Positions 1,083 to 7,670 are shown, numbered from the stretch's first letter. The stretch is 7,984 bases of DNA from a virus (IMGVR_UViG_2850808358_000006:1-7984), one strand, 5' to 3'. The notes: generated by a model not told the origin, from the sequence alone. Translations and numbers: made by a program.

Positions 1083-1382
1083 ATGAGAACGTATTTATCT
1101 GGCTTGACTGCCAGCGGTTATGCACACCCCCAAATTATCCCCGGCGCTATTTATCTGGATAAGAACGGTAACAGAGTAACGGTAAAAGAACTGATGTTTG
1201 ACCGTGTGTATTTTATCCGTGATGGCTATTCATTTCTTAGTTCGCTGAACGTGGAGATCTTTATTAGCAGATTCAGGCGGGAAATCCCGCTTTCCAGAAA
1301 TAACCATGTGTCATGTATGGATGTTGATAAAAAACTACAGGAACTAAAAAACATGATTGCCGCGTGGAGAGAGCAGAAATGA
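1083..1382 (+). CDS. hypothetical protein (99 aa), AT-rich accessory-like gene
   Basis: Track ORF 1083..1382. Stop TGA 1380-1382 overlaps the primase ATG 1379-1381 (ATGA), suggesting coupling. Lower GC by eye. No recognisable motif. Confidence 0.55.
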   Translation: MRTYLSGLTASGYAHPQIIPGAIYLDKNGNRVTVKELMFDRVYFIRDGYSFLSSLNVEIFISRFRREIPLSRNNHVSCMDVDKKLQELKNMIAAWREQK

Positions 1383-2500
1383 AAAAAGCGCCAAATTTAA
1401 AACACCAGCCGCGTGACAAAATGACGGAAGTCATCATTTTTGCGGGTAGTGATGCGTGGGCACATGCGAAACAGTGGCAGGAACAGGACGGGCGACTGGC
1501 TGGCGATAACGTGCCACCTGTCTGGCTTGGAGAGCAACAACTTGCCGAACTGGACAACCTGCAAATCGTACCGGACGGACGCTATCGCGTGCGTCTCTAT
1601 CAGGCGGGGTTATTGCGTCCGGGGCTTGTTAATACCATCGGGCAGAAACTGGCAGTGGCAGGTGTCAGGGATGCTGATTATTACCCTGAAGGAATGCACA
1701 GCCAGAAACGGGAGAACTGGCGCGAATATCTGGAACGTGAACGGGCAGAGCAGGCGGAAAAGAAAAAGGTAGTTGAACTGCCTGTAAAGAAAAAAGAGCC
1801 ATGCTATCAGGATGATGAATTAAAGCCCCGCGTTGAAAGTCGCGTCGATGGTGTTTTCTGGGTAACGCCCAAAGTGGATAAGCAGTCAGGCGAAATTATC
1901 CGGCCTGAGACGTGGTTATGTTCTCCGCTTGAACTACTGGGAACGGGGACGATCGGTAAAGAGCATTACCGCGTGATGCGCTGGAAAAAATTAGCAAACC
2001 ATGAAGTCATCACAATGGCGATCCCGTGTGGTGGCATTGGCGACCGTGACGGCTGGCGGTTGCTTAAAGATCACGGGCTGAACGTGACAACAAACGGCAA
2101 ATACAGGGCTATCCTGGCTGACTGGATGCAGTTAAGCGGAAGCCATGAGGAATGGCAGCTAAGCACAACAACGGGCTGGCATTTTGGCGCGTATATCATG
2201 CCGGACGGCTCAATCATTGGTGATTCTGAAAAACCGATCCTGTTTACCGGAAAAAGTGCCGCTGTTAATGGCTATTCGGTTGCGGGTACGGCGGAGGGCT
2301 GGCGCGACTGCGTGGCGCGGCTGGCTGGTGGCAATCCGTCCATGATGCTGGGTGTTGCCACGTCACTGGCAGCACCTTTGATTGGCCTTGTTGGTGCTGA
2401 CGGCTTCGGGTACATCTTTTCGAACAGTCATCGGCAGGGAAAACCACCACGCAGAACATCGCATCAAGTTTATGGGGAGAGCCGGACGCACAACGGCTGA
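1379..2500 (+). CDS. primase-helicase, N-terminal fragment (Toprim-like primase region); reading frame breaks near 2411-2416
   Basis: Track ORF 1364..2500 (GTG). I prefer ATG 1379, preceded by GGAGAGAG (1366-1373). Toprim-like segment TEVIIFAGSDAW ... RDADYY by eye. The frame-2 tail after about 2413 (IFSNSHRQGKPPRRTSHQVYGESRTHNG) looks like out-of-frame translation because the conserved helicase motifs continue in frame 1. Confidence 0.6.
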   Translation: MKKAPNLKHQPRDKMTEVIIFAGSDAWAHAKQWQEQDGRLAGDNVPPVWLGEQQLAELDNLQIVPDGRYRVRLYQAGLLRPGLVNTIGQKLAVAGVRDADYYPEGMHSQKRENWREYLERERAEQAEKKKVVELPVKKKEPCYQDDELKPRVESRVDGVFWVTPKVDKQSGEIIRPETWLCSPLELLGTGTIGKEHYRVMRWKKLANHEVITMAIPCGGIGDRDGWRLLKDHGLNVTTNGKYRAILADWMQLSGSHEEWQLSTTTGWHFGAYIMPDGSIIGDSEKPILFTGKSAAVNGYSVAGTAEGWRDCVARLAGGNPSMMLGVATSLAAPLIGLVGADGFGYIFSNSHRQGKPPRRTSHQVYGESRTHNG

Positions 2501-2601
2501 CCTGGTACGGCACAGCGTTAGGTATCGCTAACGAGGCAGAGGCGCACAACGACGGGCTGTTACCCCTGGATGAAATAGGCCAGGCCGGAAACGCGCGGGA
2601 G

Positions 2602-3501
2602 GTGTCCACGTCAGCCTATACGTTGTTTAACGGTTCCGGGAAATTACAGGGGGCGAAGGACGGCGGCAACCGGGAGATAAAACACTGGCGCACGGTGGCA
2701 ATCAGCACCGGAGAAATGGACGTTGAGACATTCCTCAAAACGGAGGGGATAAAAGTCAAAGCGGGGCAGCTTGTCCGCCTGCTTAACGTTCCGATGGAAA
2801 AAGCCACGCACTTTCACGAATACAGCACCGGAAAGGCGCACGCAGACGCGTTAAAGGATGCCTGGACAGAAAATCACGGGGCAGCGGGTCGTGAGTGGGT
2901 TAAATGGCTGGCAGGCCACCAGCAGGAGGCAAAGGATACGGTAAGGGAATGCCGCGAACGGTGGCGCAACCTGATACCGGAGAGCTACGGCGAGCAGGTC
3001 CACCGCGTGGGTGAGCGTTTCGCCATACTGGAGGCCGCGCTTGTGCTTTCCTGTCATGTAACTGGCTGGGCCGCGCAGGAATGCCGGGACGCAATACAGC
3101 ATAACTTTAATGCCTGGGTGAAGGAGTTCGGCACGGGTAACAGGGAATTTAAACAGATGGTTGAACAGGCTGAGGCGTTTTTGTCGTCGTTCGGGTTCAG
3201 TCGATACCTTCCTTACCCAAACAGTGATGAACGTGATTTACCGATTAAAGACCTTGCCGGATACAGAAAGGGGAGTATCAGAAATGAAGATGATGAGTTC
3301 CGTTTTTACACGTTTCCTCATGTGTTTGAGGGGGAGATCGCACAGGGATTTAACCCGTCCCACTTTGCCCGCGCGTTGAGTGCTGCCGGAATGCTGGAAG
3401 CGGGTAACGATCGCCGTTACAAGAAAAAGGCTCTCGGCAAAATTGGGGGGAAGCAGCATGTTTTTTACGTGCTGATGTTCCAGCCTGAGGCAGAAGATTA
3501 A
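2602..3501 (+). CDS. primase-helicase, C-terminal fragment (SF3/D5-like or DUF927-like helicase); homology extends upstream to about 2413 in the same frame
   Basis: Track ORF 2602..3501 (GTG). My manual frame-1 translation from 2413 gives HLFEQSSAGKTTTQNIASSLWGEPDAQRLTWYGTALGIANEAEAHNDGLLPLDEIGQAGNAREV, with Walker A (GKTT) at 2437-2448 and a Walker B-like LLPLDE at 2557-2574, then running into the track ORF. This means the two fragments are one gene split by a frameshift. Confidence 0.6.
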   Translation: MSTSAYTLFNGSGKLQGAKDGGNREIKHWRTVAISTGEMDVETFLKTEGIKVKAGQLVRLLNVPMEKATHFHEYSTGKAHADALKDAWTENHGAAGREWVKWLAGHQQEAKDTVRECRERWRNLIPESYGEQVHRVGERFAILEAALVLSCHVTGWAAQECRDAIQHNFNAWVKEFGTGNREFKQMVEQAEAFLSSFGFSRYLPYPNSDERDLPIKDLAGYRKGSIRNEDDEFRFYTFPHVFEGEIAQGFNPSHFARALSAAGMLEAGNDRRYKKKALGKIGGKQHVFYVLMFQPEAED

Positions 3502-3523
3502 CCCCCTGTGTGAGGTGAAAAGT

Positions 3524-3840
3524 TGCGGGTTATGCGGGTTACTCTGTGTATAAGTGCATTAACTGCATGAATAAAAAGGAAATCAATAACCCGCACGTAA
3601 CCCGCAAAACGGCAGTTATAACCCGCAAAAGTGCGATTATAACCCGCAGATGAATAACAGGAAGTGACAGCAAACAGCCACGCGTAACCCGCAGAAAAAA
3701 AACCGTTTGCGGGTTATTTTGAGCATTTTGCGGGTTACGCCACGGCTAAACAGTAAACAGTTAATTTTGTAATGTATTGATATTAAGGAATAAAAAATAC
3801 TTAGCAAGCGAAGATAACCCGCTAACCCGCATAACCCGCA
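3524..3840. repeat. iteron array (9-mer TAACCCGCA / TGCGGGTTA, about 12 copies) around an AT-rich core; putative origin of replication
   Basis: Reverse copies at 3524-3532, 3533-3541, 3708-3716, 3729-3737. Forward copies at 3587-3595, 3598-3606, 3619-3627, 3640-3648, 3685-3693, and three tandem copies across 3814-3840. AT-rich stretch about 3740-3812. Sits immediately 3' of the helicase gene, as in SaPI/PICI-type origins. Confidence 0.7.
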
Positions 3841-3879
3841 CTGTTTTGTATATATATACGAAAAATTGAGATCTGAACT

Positions 3880-4122
3880 ATGAAGGCAAACCGCAAACAA
3901 CCACACTACCGCGCTATTGACCTTACAGAGCACTGGCTGAGAGTGGCGATAAAAATCATCGACCGAAACACGGGGGAAGGATATGCAAAAGCACATCCCG
4001 AACTGATAAGCGCATTCATGACAACGGCAGCTGCAAACTTTGCCACGTTGACAGAACGGGAGATTGCCGAAGCGGAACAGGTAACAACCATCAACGTTAA
4101 AACCGGAGAGCAGACAGCATGA
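3880..4122 (+). CDS. hypothetical protein (80 aa)
   Basis: Track ORF 3880..4122. Stop TGA 4120-4122 overlaps the SSB ATG 4119 (ATGA). Weak Shine-Dalgarno. A TATATATA box (about 3849-3858) immediately follows the last iterons. Confidence 0.5.
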   Translation: MKANRKQPHYRAIDLTEHWLRVAIKIIDRNTGEGYAKAHPELISAFMTTAAANFATLTEREIAEAEQVTTINVKTGEQTA

Positions 4123-4541
4123 CAGCACAGATAGCGGCTTACGGGCGGCTGGTGGCTGACCCGCAGTTAAAGACCACCAGCAAGGGTACACAAATGACGA
4201 TGGCTAGTATGGCGGTACCCCTTCCGTGCAGCCAGGCAGATGACGGAACGGCGACGATGTGGTTATCCGTCCTGGCGTTTGGCAGACAGGCCGACGCACT
4301 GGCAAAACACCACAAAGGCGAACTGGTGAGCGTGGCGGGTAACATGCAGGTAAGCCAGTGGACAGGCCAGAACGGCGAAACGCGGCAGGGCTGGCAGGTT
4401 ATCGCAGACAGCGTAATCAGTGCGAGAACGGCGCGACCGGGCGGAAAAAAAGGCCAGCAGGGGCAGGCTACTGACGCACTGAACAGGGCAAAACAACAGG
4501 CGGGTAACGATGATCCGTACGGGGATAACATACCGTTTTAA
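4119..4541 (+). CDS. ssb: single-stranded DNA-binding protein (SSB family, short form, 140 aa)
   Basis: OB-fold pattern similar to E. coli SSB by eye: MWLSVLAFGRQADALAKHHKGELVSVAGNMQVSQWTGQNGETRQGWQV compared with [43 protein letters not shown]. Gly/Gln-rich linker and C-terminal tip DDPYGDNIPF, matching the conserved SSB protein-interaction tail that ends in IPF. Confidence 0.8.
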   Translation: MTAQIAAYGRLVADPQLKTTSKGTQMTMASMAVPLPCSQADDGTATMWLSVLAFGRQADALAKHHKGELVSVAGNMQVSQWTGQNGETRQGWQVIADSVISARTARPGGKKGQQGQATDALNRAKQQAGNDDPYGDNIPF

Positions 4542-6413: not shown

Positions 6414-6827
6414 ATGGCAACGAATGAAAGTATCATGGCGCTACCGCTGGCGAGTAAATTTAAAGCTGAAGCGCGGGCAATGGCTGACAGATGTCTATCA
6501 ACCTACGAAGCTATATATCAACTTAACAAACTGGAAGAACAGGACAAGCCGCGCGCTGATGCGATTATGTCGCTTCATGAATCTGACGACTATCAGCCGC
6601 TGTTACGTGCAATGGCAAACGTGCCTTGTATTGATGTTGATACGGCTAAAAACATCCTGAACATGACCATAGAGCAGGAACGCCAGAAGGTTGCACCAGA
6701 GCTTACCGCAGCCTTTGAAAACTTTATGGACATGCACAGCCCACAAGCCGTATCAGCTGGCATGGCATACGATGGCAGAAACCCGGGCGATGACGGCGAC
6801 ATTGATCGCATACTGAAAACCATCTGA
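6414..6827 (+). CDS. hypothetical protein (137 aa), last gene of the capsid operon
   Basis: Track ORF 6360..6827 trimmed to ATG 6414, which follows a GGGGGGA run (6404-6410). Followed by a terminator. No recognisable motif; not obviously lambda FI or FII. Confidence 0.6.
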   Translation: MATNESIMALPLASKFKAEARAMADRCLSTYEAIYQLNKLEEQDKPRADAIMSLHESDDYQPLLRAMANVPCIDVDTAKNILNMTIEQERQKVAPELTAAFENFMDMHSPQAVSAGMAYDGRNPGDDGDIDRILKTI

Positions 6828-6833
6828 GACAAG

Positions 6834-6855
6834 GCCGGAGAAATCCGGCTTTTTT
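6834..6855 (+). terminator. rho-independent terminator after the capsid operon
   Basis: Stem GCCGGA (6834-6839) and TCCGGC (6844-6849), loop GAAA, T-run 6850-6855. Nearly identical in sequence to the terminator at 4557-4579. Confidence 0.75.
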
Positions 6856-6976
6856 GCGGGTCCTTTCCGGCATATGGACCTGTTACGGGGCGGCGACCTC
6901 GCGGTTTTTCGCTATTTATGACGTTTTTCCGTGAAGGTGACACCACCACCACTTGATTAACATTTAACCAGTTAAT
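6856..6976 (+). other. lambda-type cos site (cosQ-like 6858-6870, cosN cohesive-end core GGGCGGCGACCT 6888-6899, short cosB-like region)
   Basis: GGGTCCTTTCCGG ... GTTACGGGGCGGCGACCTCGCGGTTTTTCGCTATTTATGA matches the joined lambda right end and left end (GGGTCCTTTCCGGTGATCCGACAGGTTACG + GGGCGGCGACCTCGCGGGTTTTCGCTATTTATGAAAATTTTCCGG), recalled from memory. Downstream CGTTTTTCCGTG (6922-6933) resembles the lambda R3 element CGTTTCCGTTCT. Followed by CACCACCACC and the palindrome TTAACCAGTTAA (6964-6975), then the Nu1-like gene. Confidence 0.8.
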
Positions 6977-6988
6977 TGAGGTAACATT

Positions 6989-7423
6989 ATGATTGATAAG
7001 ACTTGTTTTGTAAGTCAGCAGGAAATAGCTGAACATTTCAAGGTAAACAGAACCACTATTCGCGCATGGACCAAACAGGGGATGCCGTATCTTAATGCGG
7101 ATCGCGGAAAGTCCGGCGGTTATCACATCGGGCATACATTGCTTTGGTCTTCAGGTAAAAGCCATCTTGAGGCCATTGGATATCACGTAGAAACCAGTGC
7201 GCTGGAAAAAATTATGGTTGCCAGGCTGCTTTCATCTGAGCGTGACGAGTACTCCAGTGAAGAAACAGAACATCGATTTGATGAAGGTTTGCAGATTTAC
7301 GGCTATTCACCGGAAGATGTGAGCAAAGCACGAAATAAAATGGCTGGCTTTCTGGCTGGGTGGCGTCATGCAGTAAGCGTTCGCCGTGCCAGCATGGAGC
7401 AATCAGCCGATACCGAACAGTAA
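6989..7423 (+). CDS. Nu1-like small terminase subunit homologue (winged-HTH DNA-binding domain), 144 aa; possibly a packaging-redirection (Rpp-like) factor
   Basis: N-terminus QQEIAEHFKVNRTTIRAWTKQGMPYL matches lambda Nu1 KKQLADIFGASIRTIQNWQEQGMPVL by eye. About 35 aa shorter than Nu1. No large-terminase gene follows. TGAGGT Shine-Dalgarno at 6977-6982. Lies directly downstream of the cos site. Confidence 0.75.
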   Translation: MIDKTCFVSQQEIAEHFKVNRTTIRAWTKQGMPYLNADRGKSGGYHIGHTLLWSSGKSHLEAIGYHVETSALEKIMVARLLSSERDEYSSEETEHRFDEGLQIYGYSPEDVSKARNKMAGFLAGWRHAVSVRRASMEQSADTEQ

Positions 7424-7479
7424 AGCCGATAACTTGTTAATCACTCGCAGCAATGCGTGTGATTTGTGCACACTTTCGG

Positions 7480-7670
7480 TTAACTGGTTCGATGTCCGGT
7501 TTTAGTGTCTGTTTTTTGCGCATGTCCGGTTCATGGAAAGCATGTTTTTGTATTTTTCATATAGTTAACTTGAAGAGAAGCCGGACATGGCTCCTGGAAA
7601 ATTTTCATAAATAGCGAAAACCCGCGAGGTCGCCGCCCCGTAACGGGCCATAATTCCAGGAAGGACCCGA
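7480..7670 (-). other. second cos-like site in inverted orientation (cosN core on the minus strand at 7627-7638, cosQ-like at 7656-7668, cosB-like region with three ATGTCCGG-type repeats)
   Basis: The reverse complement of 7594-7640 reads CGGGGCGGCGACCTCGCGGGTTTTCGCTATTTATGAAAATTTTCCAG, near-identical to the lambda cosN left flank. Repeats ATGTCCGG at 7492-7499 and 7522-7529 and the inverted CCGGACAT at 7581-7588 occupy positions like lambda R1/R2/R3, with an AT-rich stretch between them. TTAACTGGTT (7480-7489) mirrors the palindrome in the first cos site. Confidence 0.65.

Follow-up and report, generated by a model that had tools for sequence, protein, structure and literature searches.

The region at 3502-3879 of the window (the whole stretch of 7,984 nucleotides that was analysed) is very probably the vegetative replication origin of a Gram-negative phage-inducible chromosomal island (PICI), read by the DUF927 Pri-Rep that the island itself encodes upstream. 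The interpretation as an iteron origin, already proposed in the original prediction, is strongly supported at the sequence level by the position of the region, its 12-site architecture, the covariation of the repeats with the replicase and the homology of this replicase to SaPI Rep.

Origins of this design have already been published for SaPIs and E. coli PICIs, and the DUF927/TAACCCGCA replicon is a further example. SaPI and PICI origins lie directly 3' of rep, with sets of iterons around an AT-rich region (PMC6092414). The SaPI iterons point oppositely on the two sides of the AT-rich centre (Ubeda et al. 2007, summarised in PMC9371898), and the SaPI Reps are MCM-like self-loading helicases whose C-terminal winged helix reads 6-12 iterons just past the rep ORF (PMC9371898). 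E. coli PICIs have the same origin organisation as SaPIs, and deletion of the EcCICFT073 origin lowered the maintenance of a pri-ori plasmid (Fillol-Salom 2018, PMC6092414).

The comparison with the 2018 catalogue of E. coli PICIs covered eight islands (CFT073, IHE3034, ATCC25922, RM13514, Ecol_224, 11368.1, 042 and RM12579), all of which have other replicases and lack the DUF927/TAACCCGCA replicon; ED1a, K1516, 11128, 18098, EC2733.1 and DI14 were left out of it. When the 9-mer string was searched for in the literature, the 10 matches listed, of 64 papers that contain it, were all unrelated uses (primers and the like).

The island and its replicase gene

The window belongs to an E. coli PICI. 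Its ORFs encode an Icd-like protein, a DUF4222 protein, a DUF927 'DNA primase', a small ORF product, an SSB, a lambda-E-like major capsid protein, a gpD-like decoration protein and a small terminase. A near-identical stretch from E. coli AR_0077 (L001) is the full element, with an integrase and an alpA-like HTH regulator besides the genes of the window, and is inserted, according to its annotation, between cspD/yljB and clpS. Both the cspD-clpS att site, listed in their Table S1, and the gene order are those of the E. coli PICIs of Fillol-Salom 2018 (PMC6092414). The element fits the definition of a Gram-negative PICI (int, an alpA-type regulator, pri-rep, unidirectional genes, a size of ~10 kb, a specific att site and phage-derived packaging genes or cos). 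A 551-bp query spanning the repeats (3400-3950) had matches in 393 of 5426 complete E. coli genomes, all of them chromosomal. In the phage collection the origin was found in no phage, the sole match being 89 bp in an unannotated 2.2-kb record. The Rfam scan of the window returned no RNA family.

A lambda-type cosN (GGGCGGCGACCT plus flanks) is located at ~7596-7644 on the minus strand, and the same match is found in thousands of E. coli genomes via lambdoid prophages; 6852-6921 gives a short match to the cos/terminase/IHF region of phage 21. Both are packaging signals of the island, apart from the iteron array.

In the window, pri-rep is present as two ORFs (1364-2500 and 2602-3501), which alignment with L001 and L005 attributes to the loss of 1 bp from a G-run at ~2408, directly ahead of the Walker-A codons. 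In the relatives rep is intact and encodes 707-710 aa (707 aa in L001, 6979-9102, WP_000710148.1). As rep is frameshifted, the origin would work here only with an intact Rep of the same class supplied in trans, and this copy of the origin may be non-functional. A 299-aa protein that matches the downstream rep fragment has been called in other assemblies too (P0001). In sequence searches, Rep matched SaPI Rep (8TCH, over the full protein, E 6e-15) and SCCmec Cch (5DGK).

Table 1. Features of the rep-origin region and of the genes on either side of it in the window
Feature	Position	Strand	Remarks
pri-rep, DUF927 primase / MCM-like helicase-initiator	1364..3501	+	Pfam DUF927, PHROG 'DNA primase'
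Rep C-terminal ~104 aa coding region, predicted winged-helix iteron reader	3187..3498	+
Iterons 1-2, abutting reverse copies	3524..3541	-	Left arm of module 1; 23 bp past the rep stop
AT-rich spacer 1 (31% GC, 45 bp)	3542..3586		Holds a consensus DnaA box
Iterons 3-6, four forward copies, spacings 11/21/21	3587..3648	+	Right arm of module 1
Iterons 7-9	3685..3737		Forward 3685-3693 head-to-head with reverse 3708-3716 and 3729-3737; left arm of module 2
AT-rich spacer 2 (77 bp, 31% GC; 25% in 60-nt windows)	3738..3814		Holds an IHF consensus
Iterons 10-12, three abutting forward copies, first degenerate (TAACCCGCT)	3815..3840	+	Right arm of module 2
Conserved non-iteron motif GTTTTGTATATATATAC, directly past the last iteron	3843..3859	+	Contains the TATATATA run
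Small ORF, PHROG 1231	3880..4122	+	ATG at 3880; downstream shared module 3880..4541
ssb	4119..4541	+	Downstream shared module 3880..4541

Twelve 9-mers around two AT-rich spacers

Between 3524 and 3840, TAACCCGCA is present in eleven exact copies and one copy with a single mismatch (TAACCCGCT, 3815-3823), in both orientations, which confirms the count of about twelve that had been predicted. When up to one mismatch was allowed, 15 matches were found in the 7984-bp window against 2.1 +/- 1.5 expected, a number reached in none of 200 dinucleotide shuffles. All 11 exact copies in the window fall inside the 3524-3840 region and none outside it. On the minus strand the copies start at 3524, 3533, 3708 and 3729, and on the plus strand at 3587, 3598, 3619, 3640, 3685, 3815, 3823 and 3832; taken in order along the DNA, the start-to-start spacings are 9, 54, 11, 21, 21, 45, 23, 21, 86, 8 and 9.

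The predicted flanking of an AT-rich core was correct in that AT-rich DNA lies between the sites, but there are two such spacers (3542-3586 and 3738-3814, 31% GC each) and not one core; GC is 26% in the stretch after the array and 50% in the window. The array thus divides into module 1 (two reverse sites, the 45-bp AT-rich spacer and four forward sites) and module 2 (one forward and two reverse sites, the 77-bp AT-rich spacer and three forward sites), with a gap of 36 bp between them. As in origins of the PICI/SaPI type, the 12 iterons are divergent, two or more of them to each side of AT-rich DNA, and the array is directly 3' of the initiator gene (rep stop at 3501, first iteron at 3524).

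Spacer 1 contains a consensus DnaA box (TTATACACA, 3545-3553, minus strand), kept in both TAACCCGCA sub-lineages, and spacer 2 contains the window's sole IHF consensus match (TATCAATACATTA, 3770-3782, minus strand). Both are single sites, conserved only partly in other iteron classes, and as possible host-factor sites they are leads and not findings.

On the pattern of conservation, the twelve 9-mers are shown to be under selection. Among 12 distinct TAACCCGCA-type origins (~80-99% identical), 4 of 107 iteron columns were variable compared to 80 of 271 other intergenic columns (Fisher p 3e-9); as these origins form essentially two sub-lineages, the column test is supportive and not independent of phylogeny.

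The repeats are exchanged together with the replicase

E. coli islands that share the flanking modules of the window carry three unrelated replicase bodies, namely DUF927, a D5-like 'DNA primase family' protein (EcCICFT073) and a RepA/AAA_25 helicase. In blastn comparisons with islands of the other replicase types, homology ended at ~1743-1767 and resumed at 3908-3943, which puts the left boundary of the swap after the first ~125 codons of rep and the right one ~10-20 codons into the small ORF. Therefore, rep body and repeat array are swapped together as a single cassette, which leaves the small ORF past ~codon 10 and ssb outside. The first ~125 rep codons (1338-1767) are common to islands with unrelated replicase bodies (72-75% nucleotide identity), and they appear to be a common N-terminal module fused to different helicase/initiator bodies that marks the left recombination boundary of the cassette.

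Each replicase has its own repeat at the same intergenic place: TAACCCGCA for DUF927, CTGTCTACC/GGTAGAYA for the CFT073 type, AAAAGTGAGG or AAAAGTGGGG for RepA, and CTGTTCACC for the RM13514/Ecol_224 primases. The iteron is thus specific to the cognate Rep allele, as in PICI/SaPI-type origins, going with the replicase type and, within DUF927, with the lineage of the C-terminal domain.

Two other island proteins were considered as readers of the repeats and ruled out. An identical AlpA-like protein (WP_000953272.1) was found with all three replicase types and an identical DUF4222 protein (WP_000770163.1) with two of them, so that the same proteins co-occur with different iteron classes and neither reads the repeats.

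In L096 (EcCIRM13514, 8055-8545) and L097 (EcCI224, 6713-7433), at least nine copies of CTGTTCACC/GGTGAACA follow rep. We take this octamer to be the P4 type I iteron, and its presence suggests a P4-alpha-like specificity in bona fide PICIs.

The layout is kept while the repeat word changes

Distant relatives were collected by scanning one genome per species, which gave 20 loci with DUF927 replicases 55-75% identical to that of the window, from Escherichia albertii, Winslowiella, Cedecea, Serratia, Rahnella, Pantoea, Yersinia, Citrobacter, Pectobacterium, Tenebrionibacter, Apirhabdus and an uncultured Enterobacteriaceae MAG. In all 19 distant loci with the rep stop inside the sequence, an array begins 21-29 bp past that stop, and the same range (+21 to +29) and the same orientation of the first pair hold for 21 of 21 relatives analysed. 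None of these 19 loci has TAACCCGCA; their classes are TAACCCAC, TGAACCACG, TGAACCAAC, TGAACCG.. and TGGGAYAAG.

Across the DUF927 loci, which include 11 other genera, there are six iteron classes and one 2-4-3-3 layout of orientation and spacing. The conserved order begins with two abutting reverse sites, separated by an AT-rich gap from four forward sites (11/21/21). After another gap, a forward site stands head-to-head with a pair of reverse sites (~24/21), and a further AT-rich gap leads to three abutting forward sites. Conservation of the layout while the repeat word changes is as expected for protein sites read by a diverging DNA-binding domain.

When 18 Reps were aligned, identity over the last ~100 aa was 0.76-0.83 within iteron classes compared to 0.40-0.57 between them, whereas the helicase core was indistinguishable (~0.87 within and 0.83 between). 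In this alignment only the last ~100 residues of Rep appear to track the iteron class, in a sample of related sequences dominated by the large TGAACCAAC class. The last 104 aa, modelled alone, gave a pLDDT of 84 and a helix-turn-helix followed by a beta-hairpin wing, and the best fold match of the model was the C-terminal domain of SaPIbov1 Rep, which reads iterons. The Rep C-terminal domain is therefore predicted to be a winged-helix iteron reader, and the initiator would be, as in PICI/SaPI-type systems, of the self-loading helicase type with such a reader at its C terminus.

The TAACCCGCA iteron class is also found in the Sakai prophage Sp7, a capsid-forming PICI of the EcCIEDL933 type whose origin is identical to that of L005. 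EcCIEDL933 replicates upon induction (preprint 10.1101/2022.09.08.507074), which lends indirect functional support to the origin reading; its origin is not described in that preprint. In Yersinia pekkanenii (L015, 4280-4540 and 5400-5720), the whole origin is present a second time, in a slightly degenerate copy inside a stretch that matches rep, which looks like a duplication or an insertion disrupting rep.

The two modules are separable

The pair of 9-mers at 21-bp spacing was found in 67 IMG/VR stretches, 12 of them with the fused array and many with a 2+4 or a 3+3 module alone; in at least 17 IMG/VR contigs, one 2+4 and one 3+3 module are present kilobases apart. Module 1 (two reverse sites, AT, four forward sites) is always with rep. 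In some relatives, module 2 (one forward and two reverse sites, or three reverse sites, then AT, three forward sites and GTTTTGyWTATATATAC) is 2-10 kb off. Such split origins are found in three iteron classes, and the stand-alone module 2 always carries the iteron of its own Rep. Coordinates are 2051-2166 plus 9710-9890 in L053, 6955-7100 in L006 and 5990-6135 in L023, and further cases are L042, L047, L051, L052, L069 and L076.

In three of the IMG/VR loci (L053, L042 and L047), rep and sites 1-6 join straight to ssb, and module 2 with its motif is found ~7.5-9 kb off, in a non-coding stretch that no plus-strand gene follows. In these three a reverse site replaces forward site 7 and is followed by sites 8-12. 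A stand-alone module 2 is also found in the TGGGACAAG class (L006) and in the TGAACCAAC class (L023). Each module alone shows the arrangement typical of SaPI origins, with divergent sites around AT-rich DNA.

An element of ~87 nt located after the last gene is single in fused-type islands, at their right end (L001, 13480-13563), and doubled around the stand-alone module 2, which indicates that the fused and split forms differ by rearrangement. The element holds a 20-bp palindrome (GAGTTGCAGATCTGCAACTC) and was located at 9559-9645 and 9993-10079 in L053 and at 10686-10772 in L097, besides its position in L001. The sequence from ~10081 onward in L053 abuts the right-hand repeat, and the island end is interrupted there by an insertion sequence; this sequence is presumably an IS903-like terminal sequence.

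The existence of two separable 6-site modules is, as judged from these arrangements, a detail beyond the published origin design and may be new. We tentatively consider, as a possibility that falls well short of an even chance, that the 12-site array consists of two fused autonomous 6-site modules bridged by Rep. It would then be a bipartite, ori plus crr-like origin for an MCM-like self-loading helicase, in which module 2 with the TATA-motif would be the start of unwinding or priming and module 1 the loading or enhancer site, or the reverse.

The motif past the last iteron behaves as part of the origin

The TATATATA run at 3850-3857 falls within a motif of 17 nt, GTTTTGyWTATATATAC. Over the 148 kb of DUF927 loci, all exact matches to TTTTG[CT][AT]TATATA lie 4-5 nt past the last iteron of an origin copy, in any iteron class; L015, with its duplicated origin copy, has minus-strand matches also, which overlap the same sites. 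The full motif is conserved across all iteron classes irrespective of what lies downstream. In the split-origin relatives L053, L006 and L023 it stays with the right-hand module, in non-coding DNA and kilobases from the ssb operon. Since the motif travels with the right-hand module even when this is far from the operon, it behaves as part of the origin, and it is a candidate for the unwinding or start element.

The original prediction had placed the last copies over a downstream promoter and suggested that the initiator regulates the operon. As to the arrangement, the final three tandem copies do abut the TATATATA run ahead of the ORF at 3880, although the triple begins at 3815 and not at 3814. 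The regulatory part found no support. No sigma-70-like site (-35 and -10 hexamers 16-18 nt apart) was found by scanning 3300-4200, and manual inspection at TATATATA showed no suitably spaced hexamer in which A2 and T6 are both present. The motif persists whatever lies downstream, and the ssb of L053 directly follows the left module, with neither triple nor motif in between. A promoter at TATATATA that is weak or depends on an activator is possible.

In its stronger form, the array, or at least the triple at 3815-3840, would be mainly an operator through which the initiator or another regulator controls a promoter at TATATATA driving the small ORF/ssb/capsid operon. We consider this unlikely. 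The triple does abut an AT-rich, TATA-like run 20-30 nt before the ATG, and a Shine-Dalgarno sequence and ATG are found at a similar distance past the motif in several relatives. Plasmid Rep proteins are known to autoregulate through iteron binding. Against these points, besides the negative promoter scan, the TATATA lacks a conserved final T and there is no -35 hexamer at a workable spacing; the motif is kept where no plus-strand gene follows (L053, 9860-10080; L009, L016 and L015); and ssb in L053 comes directly after module 1. In the RepA-type islands the iterons reach within 12 nt of the ATG, which leaves no room for a promoter, and Gram-negative PICIs are described as transcribed one way from the alpA end (PMC6092414). 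Origin-proximal promoters and iterons are not covered in the EcCIMP1 and cf-PICI papers.

The inverted pair as a site geometry

The forward site at 3685-3693 and the reverse site at 3708-3716 are separated by a 14-nt loop, GAAAAAAAACCGTT, and followed by TTTT. The hairpin predicted for this pair can indeed form its 9-bp stem at those coordinates, but as DNA the stem is weak (-8.7 kcal/mol, z -1.9, equalled by 9 of 200 shuffles), and the site at 3685 is predicted to make a more stable stem with the second reverse copy, at 3729, than with that at 3708. Moreover, any forward/reverse pair of iterons can form a stem, so that the hairpin follows automatically from the mixed orientation of the sites. 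What is conserved is the head-to-head placement of two sites 14-15 nt apart, with a spacer made of an A-run and then G/C, which is kept in every iteron class and likewise in origins of the CFT073 and RepA types. The T-run that follows the pair is not conserved, the TGAACC and TGGGA classes having AAA(A) in its place, and the terminator-like look is therefore incidental. Judged by this conservation, the head-to-head pair is plausibly a protein-site geometry for opposed Rep assemblies.

That the inverted pair (3685-3716) and its T-run are instead an intrinsic terminator of the rep transcript, with the repeats acting as RNA or DNA structure and not as protein sites, is very improbable. A GC-rich stem of 9 bp (11 with G-U) followed by UUUU would suit a terminator, and so would the RNA fold of 3670-3745 (-28.4 kcal/mol, z -3.3). 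However, the 14-nt loop exceeds the 3-8 nt of rho-independent terminators, the U-tract is not a conserved one, and the plus-strand terminator scan gave no match; in the minimum-energy fold, 3685 pairs with 3729 instead. The site geometry is kept in the very classes that have AAA(A) in place of the T-run, and a terminator would leave the other ten copies unexplained.

Finally, the array is short repeated DNA in a mobile element that does have packaging signals, but the idea that the 9-mer has nothing to do with replication, being a generic genomic repeat of the REP/ERIC kind, a cos/pac packaging site or a set of recombination arm sites, can be practically dismissed: every exact copy in the window sits in one intergenic region, eight other PICI loci (~100 kb) have the 8-mer core only as scattered single copies, each island has one array, always past a DUF927 rep or as its cognate second module, cos is elsewhere (the cosN and phage-21 matches given above), and the array is distant from int and att. 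The common genomic repeat that the original prediction had named as its own possible refutation was thus not what was found.

Relationship to known origins

The closest parallel is with the SaPI and Gram-positive PICI origins, in which the array likewise starts right past the rep stop and 6-12 short divergent iterons surround AT-rich DNA. The likeness extends to the initiator, an MCM-like, AAA+ self-loading Rep with its specificity in a C-terminal winged helix, of which the Rep of the window is a homolog by sequence and by predicted structure (8TCH, 5DGK). Unlike the SaPI origins, that of the window has 9-mers in place of penta- or hexamers, an E. coli host and two tandem origin units instead of one. 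It also has GTTTTGyWTATATATAC after the last unit and a DnaA box and IHF consensus in the spacers.

With the pri-rep-ori region of EcCICFT073 (PMC6092414), the window shares the island family, the gene order, the capsid/decoration genes, cos packaging and the att sites. In both cases the origin lies in the interval from rep to the small ORF/ssb, opens with a tandem pair past the stop, has a head-to-head pair inside and closes with a tandem pair ahead of the next gene. The replicases differ, being DUF927 (MCM-like) in the window compared to a D5-like/SF3 primase-helicase or a RepA-like protein in the E. coli PICIs described there, and so do the iterons (TAACCCGCA compared to CTGTCTACC).

The alpha protein of P4 is a fused primase-helicase-initiator, D5/SF3-like, whose C-terminal domain reads short TGTTCACC type I iterons in both orientations. 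The resemblance to P4 ori/crr is that of a satellite replicon with a fused primase-helicase-initiator, and the relatives L053, L042, L047, L006 and L023 have iteron clusters separated by kilobases. In the window itself, unlike P4, the modules are 36 bp apart and do not form separated clusters. The Rep of the window is also a DUF927 protein with no D5_N or Pox_D5 domains and its iteron is TAACCCGCA and not TGTTCACC, so that it is not of the P4 type; the C-terminal domain of P4 alpha was not among the fold-search matches of the Rep C-terminal domain.

Iteron plasmid origins (RK2, R6K, pPS10 and F) are similar in having initiator repeats beside AT-rich DNA, with possible help from DnaA and IHF. 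Whereas those plasmids have direct repeats of 17-22 bp and a non-helicase, winged-helix Rep that recruits the host DnaB, the window has 9-mers of mixed orientation, and its initiator carries its own AAA+ helicase and primase, which sets it apart from plasmid origins.

A model for replication of the island

From the homology with SaPI Rep, a working sequence of events can be proposed for the origin. Replication would start only once induction of the helper phage has turned on the rightward operon of the island. The C-terminal winged helix of Rep would bind each 9-mer, and Rep hexamers would load themselves at both flanks of the AT-rich DNA and melt it, with no need of a separate loader. Synthesis would be primed by the N-terminal primase domain of Rep, and the SSB encoded downstream would coat the single strands.

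The general picture of PICI replication is unchanged by the DUF927 origin. What it adds is a concrete origin and an iteron code assigned to the DUF927 class of enterobacterial PICI replicons, the capsid-forming EcCIEDL933 included. The six iteron classes, with the corresponding Rep C-terminal domains, constitute a specificity table relevant to cross-replication and incompatibility between co-resident satellites, to PICI delivery vehicles and to the re-tuning of winged helices. Finally, the 2-4-3-3 layout and its split variants offer a tractable bacterial model for the positioning of MCM-like self-loading helicases on DNA.
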